From a virus (Duplodnaviria > Heunggongvirae > Uroviricota > Caudoviricetes): a stretch of DNA of 42,179 nt. Positions 1,009 to 42,179 of this stretch are shown here, piece after piece. The stretch's first letter is position 1. Every line of letters starts with the position of its first letter. Location: the IMG/VR virus record IMGVR_UViG_2778261252_000010, positions 1-42,179 of that record; one strand, written 5' to 3'. The notes below the pieces were generated by a model. That model ran no database searches. It worked only from the letters and a program-made list of their open reading frames with translations, and was not told where the DNA came from. The position numbers were made by a program, and so were the translations under genes.

Positions 1009-1083
1009 GTCCTCTTAGTTAAATGGATATAACGAGCCCCTCCTAAGGGCTAATTGCAGGTTCGATTCCTGCAGGGGACACCA
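1009..1083 (+). tRNA. argW: tRNA-Arg (anticodon CCU)
   Basis: 75 nt folding as a cloverleaf: acceptor GTCCTCT/AGGGGAC, anticodon stem AGCCC/GGGCT with loop CTCCTAA (anticodon CCT), T-arm GCAGG-TTCGATT-CCTGC, 3' ACCA. Confidence 0.85.
1069..1083. repeat. attL core: 15-bp CTGCAGGGGACACCA at the tRNA 3' end, repeated at 40854..40868
   Basis: Exact 15-bp direct repeat at both prophage borders; the left copy is the 3' terminus of argW. Confidence 0.7.
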
Positions 1084-1199: not shown

Positions 1200-1244
1200 G
1201 GGTAAAAAGTGGATAAAATAATTTTACCCACCGGATTTTTACCC
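1200..1244. promoter_or_regulatory. Cluster of GGGTAAAA-type repeats in both orientations directly upstream of intS (putative integrase/excisionase binding sites overlapping the intS promoter)
   Basis: GGGTAAAAA, GGATAAAAT, TTTTACCC and TTTTTACCC within 45 bp ending at the intS ATG; the same motif recurs at the torI end (40775..40795). Confidence 0.4.
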
Positions 1245-2399
1245 ATGCTCACCGTTAAGCAGATTGAAGCAGCAAAGCCGAAAGAAAAACCATACCGCCT
1301 TCTCGATGGTAATGGCCTGTACCTTTATGTCCCTGTGTCAGGGAAAAAGGTATGGCAGCTTCGCTACAAGATTGACGGTAAGGAGAAAATCCTGACCGTA
1401 GGAAAATATCCGCTAATGACTTTGCAGGAGGCAAGAGATAAAGCATGGACCGCGAGGAAAGACATCTCGGTTGGCATCGATCCGGTAAAAGCGAAAAAGG
1501 CTTCGTCTAACAACAATTCCTTTAGTGCAATTTACAAGGAATGGTACGAGCACAAGAAGCAAGTATGGTCAGTAGGCTATGCAACTGAGCTTGCCAAAAT
1601 GTTTGATGACGACATTTTACCCATCATCGGCGGTCTTGAGATTCAGGATATTGAGCCGATGCAACTGCTGGAAGTAATCCGCAGATTTGAAGATCGCGGT
1701 GCAATGGAACGAGCCAACAAAGCCCGCAGAAGATGCGGCGAGGTTTTCCGTTACGCTATTGTCACCGGAAGGGCTAAATATAACCCGGCACCTGACCTTG
1801 CAGACGCCATGAAAGGATACCGCAAGAAGAACTTCCCGTTTCTTCCAGCAGACCAGATCCCTGCATTCAACAAAGCACTGGCAACATTTTCAGGAAGTAT
1901 CGTATCGCTCATTGCGACCAAAGTTTTACGCTACACAGCCCTAAGAACGAAAGAGCTTCGCTCCATGCAATGGAAGAACGTCGATTTTGAAAACAGGATT
2001 ATCACCATCGACGCCAGTGTGATGAAGGGACGCAAAATTCATGTGGTCCCGATGTCAGACCAGGTGGTTGAACTTCTCACTACGCTAAGCTCAATCACTA
2101 AACCAGTATCAGAGTATGTTTTTGCCGGGCGCAACGATAAGAAGAAGCCAATTTGCGAGAACGCTGTACTACTTGTGATCAAACAAATCGGATATGAGGG
2201 TCTGGAAAGCGGACACGGATTCAGGCATGAATTCAGCACGATTATGAACGAGCACGAATGGCCTGCTGACGCGATTGAGGTTCAACTGGCGCATGCCAAC
2301 GGTGGATCTGTGCGCGGGATTTACAACCATGCTCAGTATCTGGATAAGCGCAGAGAAATGATGCAGTGGTGGGCTGATTTCATTGACGGAAAAGCATGA
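1245..2399 (+). CDS. intS: Tyrosine recombinase / prophage integrase (P4-like family)
   Basis: ORF next to the tRNA; N-terminus MLTVKQIEAAKP typical of P4-family integrases; C-terminal catalytic region with R..H..R..Y-type residues; start taken at the second Met (1245) of the 1209..2399 ORF. Confidence 0.8.
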   Translation: MLTVKQIEAAKPKEKPYRLLDGNGLYLYVPVSGKKVWQLRYKIDGKEKILTVGKYPLMTLQEARDKAWTARKDISVGIDPVKAKKASSNNNSFSAIYKEWYEHKKQVWSVGYATELAKMFDDDILPIIGGLEIQDIEPMQLLEVIRRFEDRGAMERANKARRRCGEVFRYAIVTGRAKYNPAPDLADAMKGYRKKNFPFLPADQIPAFNKALATFSGSIVSLIATKVLRYTALRTKELRSMQWKNVDFENRIITIDASVMKGRKIHVVPMSDQVVELLTTLSSITKPVSEYVFAGRNDKKKPICENAVLLVIKQIGYEGLESGHGFRHEFSTIMNEHEWPADAIEVQLAHANGGSVRGIYNHAQYLDKRREMMQWWADFIDGKA

Positions 2400-2490
2400 A
2401 TCATTAGCGCAAGACGAATCTTAACCTGTGATGATTTTGAGTTGTTTTGCGCTAATTTTTGCCCCATCCATGCCCCATCAAATCAATTTA

Positions 2491-4422
2491 TTAGTTTGTT
2501 AACACAGACCCACTTATGAGTATTGCATTTGACGTACTGGTTATGTTTGGCATCCAAACCACACCGTTAGTATCGATCATCGCAGATCCATAGTTCGTAC
2601 CAGCAGTATTCGAAACCTGTGCTGCACCTCCATATAACAGCCCTCCAAATGACGGAAGTGTCGTTTTTGATAGACCATGTTCACATGAAAGATAGTTTGT
2701 TGGCGACACTTTAACCGAAAAAGATACAATCTTATTATTTCTTGTAAATTTTCCTTCAATTAACGCACCTCCTGGAGCTGTCCAACCAGGGATCCCAGGT
2801 ATAAAGTCGCGACAACTCAAATCTCCTGTAATTGTTAAATAGTTCTGAATCCAGGAATCAGAACCAGCTATTCCTTTTGTTAGTTTTTCTGAATACACAT
2901 TAGTTATTTCTGTGTGCCCATTGACGCCTACAGCATTAATATCAGATGTCACATTACCTACCTGCGAATGTGATACTGGGTTTTCTATCAAAATATTACT
3001 ATTGGCACCGGATGTGCCATCCAACTTAACCAGGGCTCCATCTATGTCTCCAGTAAGATTTCCATTCCCTGCGCCATATGGGGAGGTAAGAACTACTTGA
3101 GAACACCCTGTAGATAGATAAAAAACACCTAACTTATTTCCTTCCCCTGCGCAGTTGATAGCAGTAAACCCTTCAACAGAATGCAGTATATAGCCATACC
3201 CAGAAACTTCACTTCCTTCACTTGCACAAGTGTTCATAGAGCAATAGATACAATTTTGGAAATAGAAATAACCACCAATGCCATAACAGTTTTCAAACAG
3301 CAATGAAGTACATGCCGGTTGCACACAGAAAGAAGGGCCACCTCCATGCATCCACACTTTGCAATGAGAGATATTCCCCATGAAAGCACAGTCTGTGCCA
3401 TTAGATTCCCCAAAGCGGATACCTTGCCCCCCAGGTCCAGTATCGGAATCCACAGTAAGACCAGTTAATCTAAAATCATCTATTTTAGTCAGCCATAAAG
3501 CGACTGAAAGCGAACTACCACCGGCACGATGCGATACATGAAAATCTTCTAAAACCAGACCTCTTACTCCCTTAAAAGTAATGGCACGCGAATTTTGCGG
3601 TATAGAATCAAAATTTAAATAGCAAAGGTTTTTAGTTTTGGCATTTGCCATATGATTATAAGAGCCAGTACCTGTTATTTTCAGGCTCGCCTCATCATTA
3701 AAGTCAATAACAAGTGGTTTTGAAAATTTATATTTACCACTTAAACTAATTTCTTTACCCCGTGCAGCAGCGATGCATTTTGTAAATGCTGCATGGCAAT
3801 CAACGGTGTCAGTAGGATCTGCTCCCCACCATTCGGGTTTGTAGCTCCCTTCTATTACCCTCTTCCATCTCCTACCGGAAGCCCCAACCAAAATGATTCC
3901 ATCATCATCATCGCTCGTAGTGTCTGTATCATCTAAATAAAACCATCCTTCTCCGCCATCAAATAACCCTGACCTCCCAAGGCAATATATTTTTTTTGAT
4001 TTCTCAGAATAAGTTCTTATATCAGAAAAATACGCTCCTCCAACCAGCGTTGAGCCATAAACATCGGCTAGGCGATTTGTGAACTGATCCGGGTCGTACT
4101 TCAGAACATTCGGAAAATAGAACTGCTGCGCCCCGTACGCATCATAAACAGCCATAGAATGGCCTTGCACAGTTACGAACTTGGCAATCTGTCCGTTATA
4201 TACCGGATAACCAGCAGCGTTAATGATGATTGGCTGTGCAACAGGAACGTGAGAACCATCTTCGTTCTCCACATAAACCTGAATCTGGTTTTCAGGATTT
4301 ACTGGGTCAGTGTCAATTTTACCGATATAAATTTTGCCATTAGCTACGGCTTTGAAAGAACGAGCCATAGTGAAGAGTTGCGATGGCATACTTACTACAA
4401 CATTGGCTGTAATGTCTGTCAT
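2491..4422 (-). CDS. Tailspike protein: P22 gp9-like N-terminal head-binding domain fused to a divergent, Cys-rich receptor-binding/depolymerase domain
   Basis: First ~115 aa ([11 protein letters not shown]...[19 protein letters not shown]...VLKYDPDQ) match the P22 tailspike head-binding domain from memory; last gene of the late operon, as gene 9 is in P22. Confidence 0.8.
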
Positions 4423-4480: not shown

Positions 4481-4503
4481 AAAAAAACCCAGCCGAAGCT
4501 GGG
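4481..4503 (-). terminator. Intrinsic terminator downstream of ant
   Basis: On the minus strand: CCCAGC-ttcg-GCTGGG hairpin followed by TTTTTTT. Confidence 0.6.
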
Positions 4504-4522
4504 TCGTTGCGTTGGTTATCTG

Positions 4523-5487: not shown

Positions 5488-5670
5488 TCACTGTTTTATG
5501 TTCACATCTAACATTGTTTTTCTAGAATTTAACTCTTTCCCCATCGCTTCAACGCAAAGAGATACACAACCACTACAGATAAATATCTCTGCTTTAGCGC
5601 GAATCAACATTGCACATTCATGCTGAGGCTTTCCGCAGAAGGAGCACTTAAAGCCATCTTCTTTATTCAT
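5488..5670 (-). CDS. 60-aa protein resembling the ClpX N-terminal C4 zinc-binding domain
   Basis: KCSFCGKPQHECAMLI...ICSGCVSLC aligns with ClpX YCSFCGKSQHEVRKLI...ICDECVDLC (same Cys spacing); start ATG overlaps the arc stop (ATGA) and is preceded by a GAGGG ribosome-binding site. Confidence 0.6.
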   Translation of the reverse strand: MNKEDGFKCSFCGKPQHECAMLIRAKAEIFICSGCVSLCVEAMGKELNSRKTMLDVNIKQ

Positions 5671-6200: not shown

Positions 6201-7187
6201 TTAGATTTCTGGTTTTATTCTTCCAAAAACCTTTTCTATTCCTTTTTCGTATTCTTCTCTTGTCTCGCTCATCGCTGCGACACCAAGAAGCTTACCGATA
6301 TGCTGACGCAAAGCCTTGACACCAATTTCAGAAAGGAACAGGTGCAACTTATCAGATTGTTTTCCGTTCTCGTCTCGGCTGGCTCGAATCTGTTCAAGGA
6401 TTTTACCTTTACTCTTTGCTAGAGGAGTGTATATCTGCATGTTGGTTAGCTGCCCAAAACGAATTGGACGTCCTTTCTCTGGCCTGTTCAGGCCGTACAG
6501 TCGATACCACTCCTCATATAGCTCATCTGGAAATTCTTTTTCATACTGCCTCGCCTCTTCACGAACAAAGGCCTTGAAGGAATCAATAACCTCCTGTACT
6601 TCAGGTCGATATCCTGCAATAGCATAACCAAGTCCTTTAAGCCCTGCTTTCATTGATGCGGTAACAAGTCTTTGGGCAAGGCTGGCAGATTTTGATCTTG
6701 AAGGCGGTAGAGCGCCAGCTCGATCGGCATTAATCATTGCTGTGGCTATATCGCCGATAAGGGCAATATCGTAACCGTGAGCCTCATCAGCGAGTGGATT
6801 TGGGGCTGAGTTTGGGACCGGACTTCTCCATTGAAAAATAAGAGGTTTTTTGAATTTTTCTAGCAGAAATGGATCAACAAAATCAGCCATATAATTCGTA
6901 TTTAGAAAACGGTCTACATCCCTACCATGCTCACCGATTCCTAGTAATTTAGCCAGACCAGTTTTACTAACTACAACCGTTTTATCATTATCATCAAGTA
7001 CGTAACATTCTGCATCAATGCCGAAATCATCAATGAAGTTACCCTTTCTGATCGCTCTTAGTGGCTTACCTTCCCATCGTTTTGCCGCTGCTTTCTTTGC
7101 TATTTCAGAACGCTGCTCTTTAGTCAGCGACTTTGCGCGAGCGATCCCGCCCTTAGCTTTCCCTTCGCCACTTTTCTTTTCAGTCAT
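6201..7187 (-). CDS. Hypothetical phage protein, paralog of the cI-downstream gene 33149..34069 (possibly P63C-type regulator domain; unverified)
   Basis: 329 aa from an ATG with AGGTG ribosome-binding site (the ORF track extends to 7262); shares blocks with the 33149..34069 product (AECYVLDD vs IDCYVLD; FPDELYEEWYRLYG vs FPDELWEEFGRLTG). Confidence 0.65.
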   Translation of the reverse strand: MTEKKSGEGKAKGGIARAKSLTKEQRSEIAKKAAAKRWEGKPLRAIRKGNFIDDFGIDAECYVLDDNDKTVVVSKTGLAKLLGIGEHGRDVDRFLNTNYMADFVDPFLLEKFKKPLIFQWRSPVPNSAPNPLADEAHGYDIALIGDIATAMINADRAGALPPSRSKSASLAQRLVTASMKAGLKGLGYAIAGYRPEVQEVIDSFKAFVREEARQYEKEFPDELYEEWYRLYGLNRPEKGRPIRFGQLTNMQIYTPLAKSKGKILEQIRASRDENGKQSDKLHLFLSEIGVKALRQHIGKLLGVAAMSETREEYEKGIEKVFGRIKPEI

Positions 7188-7343
7188 AATGCAAGCACCT
7201 TTATTGTGATGTATGCTTGCATTATATGCACTGTACACACATACAAGCAAGCATAAAACCAAAACAAAATGCTTGCATTACAACCGCGCTACTCCAACTA
7301 CACATTATCATCTGGTATCCTGCGCAAAACTAAGGAGGTTGGT

Positions 7344-7838
7344 GTGTCTGATTCTATGAGTTACGCTGTGCTAGTTGCCGCAACTCTATTTCTGGGGATA
7401 GGGTTGCAGATTGCGTGGTTCTTTTTTTCTAGTTTTATTAAACGTAAAAGAATTGAATCAAGGATATCTGAGATTTCTATTGCTATAGGGAAAAATGCTG
7501 AAAATCCAGAGAATGAGGCCTGCGCACTGAATTACCTTAAAGAAAAGTTTTCCCCTGAAAAATTTGAAAACAGAATTACTGATGCTCTTGGATTGGTAAT
7601 ATCAGTAATTCATATGCCACTAAGTTTGCTGATAACAGTGTGGTACTTCGCCATGATCGCCGGAAGAATATTTGGTTTCATGAATATAGAGCCTGTAGTT
7701 CTTTGGGTTCCAATGATACTGCAATTGTTGTTAAGCGTTGCTATCTTTATTTTTTCTGTTTTTATAAAAATTGTCTTCGGAAGATACCCCGGAGAAGCGA
7801 AGGGATTTAATAAAGAATTCATAAAAACTATAAAATAA
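7344..7838 (+). CDS. Small polytopic inner-membrane protein in the sieA position (putative superinfection-exclusion or moron product)
   Basis: AT-rich ORF with several hydrophobic helices; strong AAGGAGG ribosome-binding site before GTG 7344 (in-frame ATG at 7356 is an alternative start); opposite strand to the late operon. Confidence 0.55.
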
Positions 7839-40544: not shown

Positions 40545-40560
40545 TTGCAGGTTCGATTCC
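40545..40560. repeat. 16-bp TTGCAGGTTCGATTCC, an exact copy of the argW T-arm segment at 1054..1069
   Basis: Exact 16-bp match to the part of the tRNA just 5' of the att core; lies 19 bp upstream of torI. Confidence 0.7.
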
Positions 40561-41309: not shown

Positions 41310-42179
41310 CTATATTGCTGAAGGTACAGGCGTTTCCATAACTATTTGCTCGCGTTTTTTACTCAAGAAGAAAATGCCAAATAGCAACATCAGGCAGACA
41401 ATACCCGAAATTGCGAAGAAAACTGTCTGGTAGCCTGCGTGGTCAAAGAGTATCCCAGTCGGCGTTGAAAGCAGCACAATCCCAAGCGAACTGGCAATTT
41501 GAAAACCAATCAGAAAGATCGTCGACGACAGGCGCTTATCAAAATTTGCCACGCTGTATTTGAAGACGGATATGACACAAAGTGGAACCTCAATAGCATG
41601 TAACAGCTTCACTAATGAAATAATCCAGGGGTTAACGAACAGCGCGCAGGAAAGGATACGCAACGCCATAATCACAACACCGATAAGTAATGCATTTTTT
41701 GGCCCTACCCGATTCACAAAGAAAGGAATAATCGCCATGCATAGCGCTTCGAGTACCACCTGGAATGAGTTGAGATAACCATACAGGCGCGTTCCTACAT
41801 CGTGTGATTCGAATAAACCTGCATAAAAGACAGGAAAAAGTTGTTGATCAAAAATGTTATAGAAAGACCACGTCCCCACAATAAATATGACGAAAACCCA
41901 GAAGTTTCGATCCTTGAAAACTGCGATAAAATCCTCTTTTTTTACCCCTCCCGCATCCGCCGCTACGCACTGGTGATCCTTATCTTTAAAACACATGTTG
42001 ATCATCATAAATACAGCGCCAAATAGCGAGACCAACCAGAAGTTGATATGGGGACTGATACTAAAAAATATGCCGGCAAAGAACGCGCCAATAGCATAGC
42101 CAAAAGATCCCCAGGCGCGCGCTGTTCCATATTCGAAATGAAAATTTCGCGCCATTTTTTCGGTGAAGCTGTCAAGCAA
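41310..42179 (-). CDS. cscB: LacY-family oligosaccharide:H+ symporter, probably sucrose permease CscB (C-terminal 289 aa; N-terminus beyond the window)
   Basis: Strong LacY-like blocks (YNIFDQQLF, GTRLYGY, VNRVGPKNALLIG, KLLHAIEVPLCVISVFKY); csc genes are known to lie near argW in sucrose-positive E. coli; ORF runs to the window edge. Confidence 0.6.
   Translation of the reverse strand: MLDSFTEKMARNFHFEYGTARAWGSFGYAIGAFFAGIFFSISPHINFWLVSLFGAVFMMINMCFKDKDHQCVAADAGGVKKEDFIAVFKDRNFWVFVIFIVGTWSFYNIFDQQLFPVFYAGLFESHDVGTRLYGYLNSFQVVLEALCMAIIPFFVNRVGPKNALLIGVVIMALRILSCALFVNPWIISLVKLLHAIEVPLCVISVFKYSVANFDKRLSSTIFLIGFQIASSLGIVLLSTPTGILFDHAGYQTVFFAISGIVCLMLLFGIFFLSKKREQIVMETPVPSAI

Follow-up and report, generated by a model that had tools for sequence, protein, structure and literature searches.

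The Tailspike Gene and Its Anchor

The question raised by the viral stretch IMGVR_UViG_2778261252_000010 (IMG/VR record, positions 1 to 42,179; the whole of these 42,179 nucleotides is hereafter the window) is what kind of receptor-binding protein is encoded by the open reading frame (ORF) at 2491..4422 on the minus strand, which an original prediction made from the letters alone had described as a chimeric tailspike. In our reading, to which we give a probability of roughly 85%, this gene belongs to a P22-like (Lederbergvirus-type) prophage that appears to be complete, and encodes a tailspike that combines an exchangeable receptor module, a polysaccharide-cleaving beta-helix and structural cysteines. 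According to the ORF list, it has 643 codons plus a stop and thus encodes 643 residues. An exact-sequence look-up returned WP_249818541.1, to which RefSeq automatically assigned the name “phage tailspike protein [Escherichia coli]” (assembly GCA_002474525.1, contig NODQ01000005.1), so that automatic annotation has already given the protein an entry and the right name. Its 90% cluster comprises 101 proteins encoded in E. coli and E. albertii, while IMG/VR returned two viral contigs with the gene, in near-identical copies, and no others. Its parts are the following:

2491..4422, minus strand: complete tailspike gene (ORF list; sequence identical to WP_249818541.1)
4084..4422, minus strand: head-binding (virion anchor) domain, residues 1–113 (Pfam PF09008, identity to P22 and Sf6)
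4072..4083, minus strand: recombination junction, residues 114–117 (end of the DNA homology to other P22-like prophages)
3844..4071, minus strand: neck/cap module, residues ~118–193, semi-conserved among tailspikes (phmmer; PF27114)
2818..3843, minus strand: predicted right-handed parallel beta-helix, residues ~194–535, presumed catalytic and receptor-binding body
2494..2817, minus strand: predicted C-terminal beta-sandwich, residues ~536–643 (model strands 553–642, confidence ~90)
3103..3390, minus strand: cysteine-ladder region, residues 345–440 (rung register from the secondary structure of the model)

Residues 1–113 match the Pfam family PF09008 (Head_binding) over its full profile (positions 1–113 of 113, E 2.9e-67), and phmmer aligns residues 1–116 without gaps to the solved chains of P22 gp9 (75.0% identity, E 2.5e-51) and to Sf6 gp14 (90.5% identity, E 1.8e-65), while head-binding identity to HK620 gp9 and CUS-3 is 87–91%. 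The close likeness of the first ~115 residues to the P22 head-binding domain is thereby borne out, as is the statement that the remainder does not resemble the P22 endorhamnosidase: matches to the P22 chain stop at residue 116, and beyond residue ~119 phmmer finds no alignment with the solved P22, Sf6 and HK620 spikes. When 50,697 phage records were searched with tblastn, P22-like phages aligned only from residue 1 to residues ~130–157, the match to CUS-3 being limited to residues 1–124. With the Sf6, HK620 and CUS-3 tailspikes, the protein therefore shares its anchor only and no receptor-domain sequence, and full-length identity to a characterised tailspike was found neither in the phage records nor among the solved structures. 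The likeness to the four reference spikes (P22, Sf6, HK620 and CUS-3) otherwise extends to the place of the gene (after ant and before int/att), to a junction near the motif KYDPDQ and to a beta-helix receptor module.

A Junction between Anchor and Receptor Module

The boundary is sharpest at the DNA level. Among 5,426 complete E. coli genomes, 1,129 match the gene by megablast (90–95% identity), but these matches are confined to nucleotides (nt) 1 to 340–347 (residues 1–114), where they end abruptly; none of the genomes covers 80% of the gene, and the remaining 1,590 nt have no match in them even by blastn with a word size of 11. Within the gene, the head-binding part is thus alone in having DNA homology with other E. 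coli prophages. Homology to E. coli then picks up again 11 nt past the stop codon (query_to 2480). The receptor-module segment has a G+C content of 0.41, which is lower than that of the remaining prophage (0.466) and of the host flank (0.49). From the other side, homology to relatives with other N-termini starts at residue 118.

Exchange of tailspike modules at the head-binding junction is textbook knowledge, and recombination at this conserved site, around residues 114–117, would have brought the receptor module into a backbone of the P22 type. The module swapping that had been proposed for this gene is supported by three observations, i.e., the abrupt end of the DNA homology, the downstream flank that is shared again and the occurrence of the C-terminal 526 residues behind unrelated N-termini. 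Such an organisation, with an anchor and an exchangeable receptor-binding domain (RBD), has been described for Lederbergviruses, the first 124 residues of the HK620 spike having served as the anchor probe (PMC10408124).

Exchange may also have occurred inside the module. In the cluster of 97–98% identical proteins, 13 linked substitutions, which form a block in the C-terminal beta-sandwich (residues 554–631), define two allele groups (P0001, P0128, P0131 and P0138 vs. P0129, P0130, P0133 and others), and these pair with differing beta-helix alleles. As the combinations differ, this mixing suggests intragenic recombination between the beta-helix body and the distal domain.

The Receptor Module on Other Phage Platforms

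With the RBD as query, phmmer was run exhaustively against 1.84 billion representative sequences and separated two levels of relatedness. Over residues ~118–230, hundreds of spikes match at 40–50% identity (query positions ~1–110 only), while from residue ~194 on, the body is found in only 27 representatives at E < 1e-30. A peptide-pattern scan of the GTDB species-representative genomes yielded no confirmed relative. Among the few proteins with unrelated N-termini, five (P0002–P0006) align with residues 118–643 at 53–54% identity over 97–100% of the RBD.

The best documented relative is gp17 of phage Sd1 (YP_009791915.1, “tail fiber protein”), a T1-like Shigella phage (Drexlerviridae, Wilsonroadvirus), which aligns by tblastn over residues 118–642 at 52.8% identity and has the same conserved cysteines and acidic residues. 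It is also the sole close match in the viral model library (Foldseek E 7e-61, template modelling score 0.71). Unlike our tailspike, Sd1 gp17 has 752 residues, with an unrelated N-terminal anchor of ~230 residues for a siphovirus tail, and its gene sits between a primase gene and an OB-fold gene. It is itself uncharacterised, a literature search on the Sd1 receptor gave no usable data, and the two proteins may not have the same specificity, given an identity of 53%. When receptor-binding proteins are grouped into subtypes at ≥30% identity over ≥60% coverage (PMC10408124, Pas et al. 2023), the RBD of the tailspike falls into one subtype with Sd1 gp17 and P0002–P0006.

The contigs of two other relatives indicate further platforms. 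The one encoding P0002 (72 kb; L006 5031..10037) has an SU10-type adaptor and portal, and directly after the adaptor gene lie tandem spike genes (971 and 678 residues), which corresponds to a dual-spike, podovirus-type arrangement with the same receptor module. The contig of P0005 (44.8 kb) carries siphovirus tail chaperones, PolA and an SNF2 helicase. Altogether, the receptor module belongs to a small family that is also present on T1-like, siphovirus-type and large-podovirus-type platforms.

Predicted Fold of the Receptor Module

The protein was modelled with AlphaFold2 as a monomer, from an alignment of 16 sequences. The predicted local distance difference test score (pLDDT) is ~90 for residues 120–643 and low for the N-terminus, which is immaterial because that part is directly homologous to solved structures. 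In the model, a short helix is followed by the neck, an alpha-helical cap (residues 210–219), regular three-stranded rungs up to residue ~535 and a beta-sandwich (residues ~536–643). The domain boundary lies at residues 114–117 and the predicted beta-helix at residues ~194–535, i.e., the parallel beta-helix expected of a P22-like tailspike. Foldseek matches include the K2-2 tailspike (TSP), CBA120 TSP2, the AM24 spike, WceF and Sf6, and the fold resembles tailspike depolymerases as well as polysaccharide lyases and hydrolases. CBA120 TSP2 (5w6p/6w4q), which is specific to O157, differs at the sequence level, with 13% identity, another N-terminal anchor and no detectable kinship.

Sequence profiles recover less of this architecture. 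A Pfam scan at E ≤ 1 reports Head_binding only, without PF12708 (Pectate_lyase_3), PF13229 (Beta_helix), Peptidase_S74 or an endosialidase domain, and NCBIfam has no family for the RBD. Precomputed annotations include PF27114 (Phage_tail_beta) in the neck/cap, for which PDB entries 5w5p and 6tgf are weak matches, and PF12708 in the relative P0121. The predicted fold is nevertheless of the Pectate_lyase_3/Beta_helix class. A profile built from 30 family members and compared to PDB sequences retrieves the Sf6 neck only (E 8e-5); since the beta-helix is left without a solved sequence homologue, catalytic residues cannot be mapped by homology.

Candidate Catalytic Residues

Residue conservation was examined across these 30 family members, which are 26–56% identical. 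Among the acidic residues, conservation is highest for E427 (29/30), D468 (29/30) and E402 (24/30, plus five Asp). E402 and E427 lie exactly one rung apart, each three residues past a cysteine of the ladders described below, and D468 lies just downstream of the ladder region. On the basis of conservation and position, these three residues are the best candidates for catalytic carboxylates. Separately, a motif resembling the YG(F)DPH of AlgE4 was considered at Y409-G-Y-I-L-H414 and rejected, since its Asp is missing and H414 is not conserved.

That the C-terminal domain may be a polysaccharide depolymerase of undefined specificity, as the original prediction had it, agrees with the predicted beta-helix, the activity itself being putative. 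Structure prediction establishes the class of the fold but not its chemistry, and hydrolase and lyase are inseparable from the data in hand. It is possible, though in our opinion unlikely, that the module is not a glycoside hydrolase but a polysaccharide lyase, acting by beta-elimination on a capsule or O-antigen with uronic acids, or an epimerase-like enzyme. Likeness in fold does not favour a lyase, as CBA120 TSP2 and polygalacturonases score equally well; moreover, the conserved residues are carboxylates (E402, E427, D468), which are more typical of hydrolases, and neither a conserved Arg/Lys/His base nor a Ca-site motif was identified among the family members (H414 is unconserved and K355 is present in 22/30).

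The Glycan Target

In the mechanism that we propose, the spike would form a trimer docked via residues 1–113, which would plug it into the tail hub. In analogy to all characterised spikes that are built in this way, the beta-helix would bind and cleave a host surface polysaccharide, and cleavage of the O-antigen of the lysogen's serogroup would let the virion reach the outer membrane. The substrate is most probably that O-antigen, again by analogy, because the RBDs of Lederbergvirus prophages generally track the O-serogroup of the host (PMC10408124) and because the absence of the module from the 5,426 complete genomes suits a rare serogroup. For lack of any RBD match in these genomes, the serogroup of the host is unreadable from strain names.

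A target shared more widely, such as a capsule, colanic acid or the enterobacterial common antigen (ECA), is a doubtful alternative. Several points speak for it: the module has homologues on four phage platforms that are unrelated to each other, Sd1 can be plated on rough E. coli B, the 91-bp gap next to the spike contains no gtr or oac genes for O-antigen modification, and the top-ranking PHROG, 8280, carries the label “tail spike protein with colanic acid degradation activity” (residues 1–537, E 2.6e-118). However, the score of PHROG 8280 is dominated by the shared N-terminus, the serogroup tracking speaks against such a target, and the absence of the RBD from complete E. coli genomes better suits a rare, serogroup-specific receptor than a common one. 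The colanic-acid label was itself judged uninformative, as the phage that bears it, SEN22, matches residues 1–128 only (tblastn).

A broader and equally tentative proposal can be made for residues 118–643, i.e., that they represent a distinct and structurally unsolved family of phage glycan depolymerases, characterised by a nearly invariant four-cysteine ladder at the T2-PB3 juncture and by E402, E427 and D468. Such a family would be distributed over four unrelated platforms, its target would be an Escherichia/Shigella surface glycan that is rare or as yet untyped, possibly other than an O-antigen, and its chemistry (hydrolase vs. lyase) would depart from that of the characterised Lederbergvirus spikes. 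We regard this combination as improbable, while considering the O-antigen of the lysogen's serogroup as the most probable substrate.

The Cysteines

The unusual number of cysteines to which the original prediction drew attention is real but not exceptional. The tailspike has 16 cysteines (2.5%), all within residues 118–643 (3.0% there) and none in the head-binding domain; seven of them fall in residues 351–400, where the peptide that had been quoted as an example corresponds to residues 366–400. Across 281 related spike proteins, cysteine content averages 1.5%, with a maximum of 2.9%, so that the tailspike stands at about the 93rd percentile (~1.7-fold enriched), and the proteins at or above its content are mostly its own relatives.

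Their arrangement is more telling. When the rung register is read from the strands of the model, C354, C379, C399 and C424 each directly precede strand 3 of consecutive rungs, in an N/H/T-C motif, and C345, C371, C394 and C440 each directly precede a strand 2. The first ladder is strongly conserved (C379 30/30, C424 29/30, C399 28/30, C354 23/30), while the positions of the second alternate Cys with Ser, Thr or Asn among family members, and C147, C366, C537 and C580 are peculiar to this tailspike. In the model, these cysteines are best explained as buried structural ladders, strongly conserved at T2-PB3 and weaker at the pre-PB2 Cys/Ser positions, with side chains that would point inward.

A functional redox, disulfide or metal-binding site, as might be suspected from seven cysteines in 50 residues and from four positions that are nearly invariant at 26–56% identity, is very improbable: with a spacing of 25/20/25 residues, the cysteines take up equivalent places from one rung to the next, the conserved positions include no CxxC-type pairs (the pair C391-x2-C394 is poorly conserved), the second ladder swaps Cys for Ser, Thr and Asn as expected of small buried residues, and spikes fold in a reducing cytoplasm. 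A precedent for structural ladders is the fucoidan lyase FdlA of Flavobacterium sp. SA-0082, whose N-terminal domain is a right-handed beta-helix with a five-cysteine ladder at the T2-PB3 juncture, buried and non-catalytic (PMC9410043), C354, C379, C399 and C424 being in the equivalent position. FdlA is an unrelated, non-phage enzyme, and the resemblance is that of an architectural motif, not evidence of common ancestry or chemistry.

The Prophage and Its Neighbourhood

The prophage is inserted at tRNA-Arg(CCU), beside yfdC, in an Escherichia chromosome, and the flank formed by the integrase gene, the tRNA and yfdC is 97–98% identical to E. coli chromosomes. Three features frame the tailspike gene:

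1009..1083: tRNA-Arg(CCU), adjoining yfdC
1209..2399: tyrosine integrase gene, following the tRNA
4486..4505, minus strand: terminator-like hairpin, placed between ant and the start codon of the tailspike gene (consensus scan)

Between the tailspike stop and the integrase stop (2400..2490), 91 bp hold no gtr or oac seroconversion genes; in P22 and Sf6, this position is occupied by O-antigen-modifying gtrABC or oac cassettes. On the other side of the gene, the strong hairpin reads GACCCAGC-TTCG-GCTGGGTT and is followed by a T-run; its 8-bp stem has 5 GC pairs. CUS-3 has an annotated “bsq1 boundary sequence” at the same position.

Upstream of the tailspike, on the same strand, come the genes for Ant, a 60-residue protein with a ClpX-type zinc finger and Arc, with an Arc-family (Mnt-like) gene on the opposite strand, then those for a P63C protein, SieA (opposite strand), gp16, gp20, gp7, gp14 and a 233-residue ORF without Pfam match, and further gp10, gp4, coat, scaffold, portal and terminase, which is the genome context of a P22-like phage. 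Each of the P22 virion and injection genes has a full-length ORF here. At the far end, 16 nt that repeat the 3' part of tRNA-Arg (40545..40560) are a candidate attR core, and a gene for a LacY-family sugar symporter (41310..42179, minus strand), truncated by the end of the window, is probably host DNA. Together, the tRNA repeat and this host gene place the size of the prophage at ~39.5 kb.

That we are dealing with a degenerating gene left in a defective prophage, with no functional spike, is highly unlikely: this idea has no direct support beyond the fact that many argW-linked E. coli prophages are remnants (e.g., the PK13 pseudogene beside intS), and it is opposed by the intact ORF, by ~100 near-identical and likewise intact copies in independent assemblies, by the full-length P22 virion and injection genes and by the two IMG/VR viral contigs with the gene.

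Two neighbouring loci deserve mention. The 60-residue ORF (5488..5670, minus strand) stands alone in the immI region, with arc on one side and ant on the other, and has a precomputed match to PF06689 (ClpX-type C4 zinc finger); as a free mimic of the ClpX N-domain, its product could interfere with substrate or adaptor recognition by ClpXP. Between gp16 and mnt/arc lie the P63C-domain gene (6201..7262, minus strand) and the superinfection-exclusion gene for SieA (7269..7838, plus strand), the former having 353 codons from a TTG start in the ORF list vs. 328 in the gene call.

Significance

The residual novelty of the locus resides in a receptor-module family without solved structure or known substrate. 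Its practical value is modest, the module being a candidate reagent to type or degrade one apparently rare surface polysaccharide of E. coli or E. albertii. Grafting of the module onto tailocins or other phage platforms is also conceivable, and has already been achieved with other Lederbergvirus receptor-binding domains (PMC10408124). As receptor-binding modules are well known to be swapped among phages and this is an ordinary case, no concept is changed by these results, which provide a clean example of a single receptor module that serves both podovirus and siphovirus tails.
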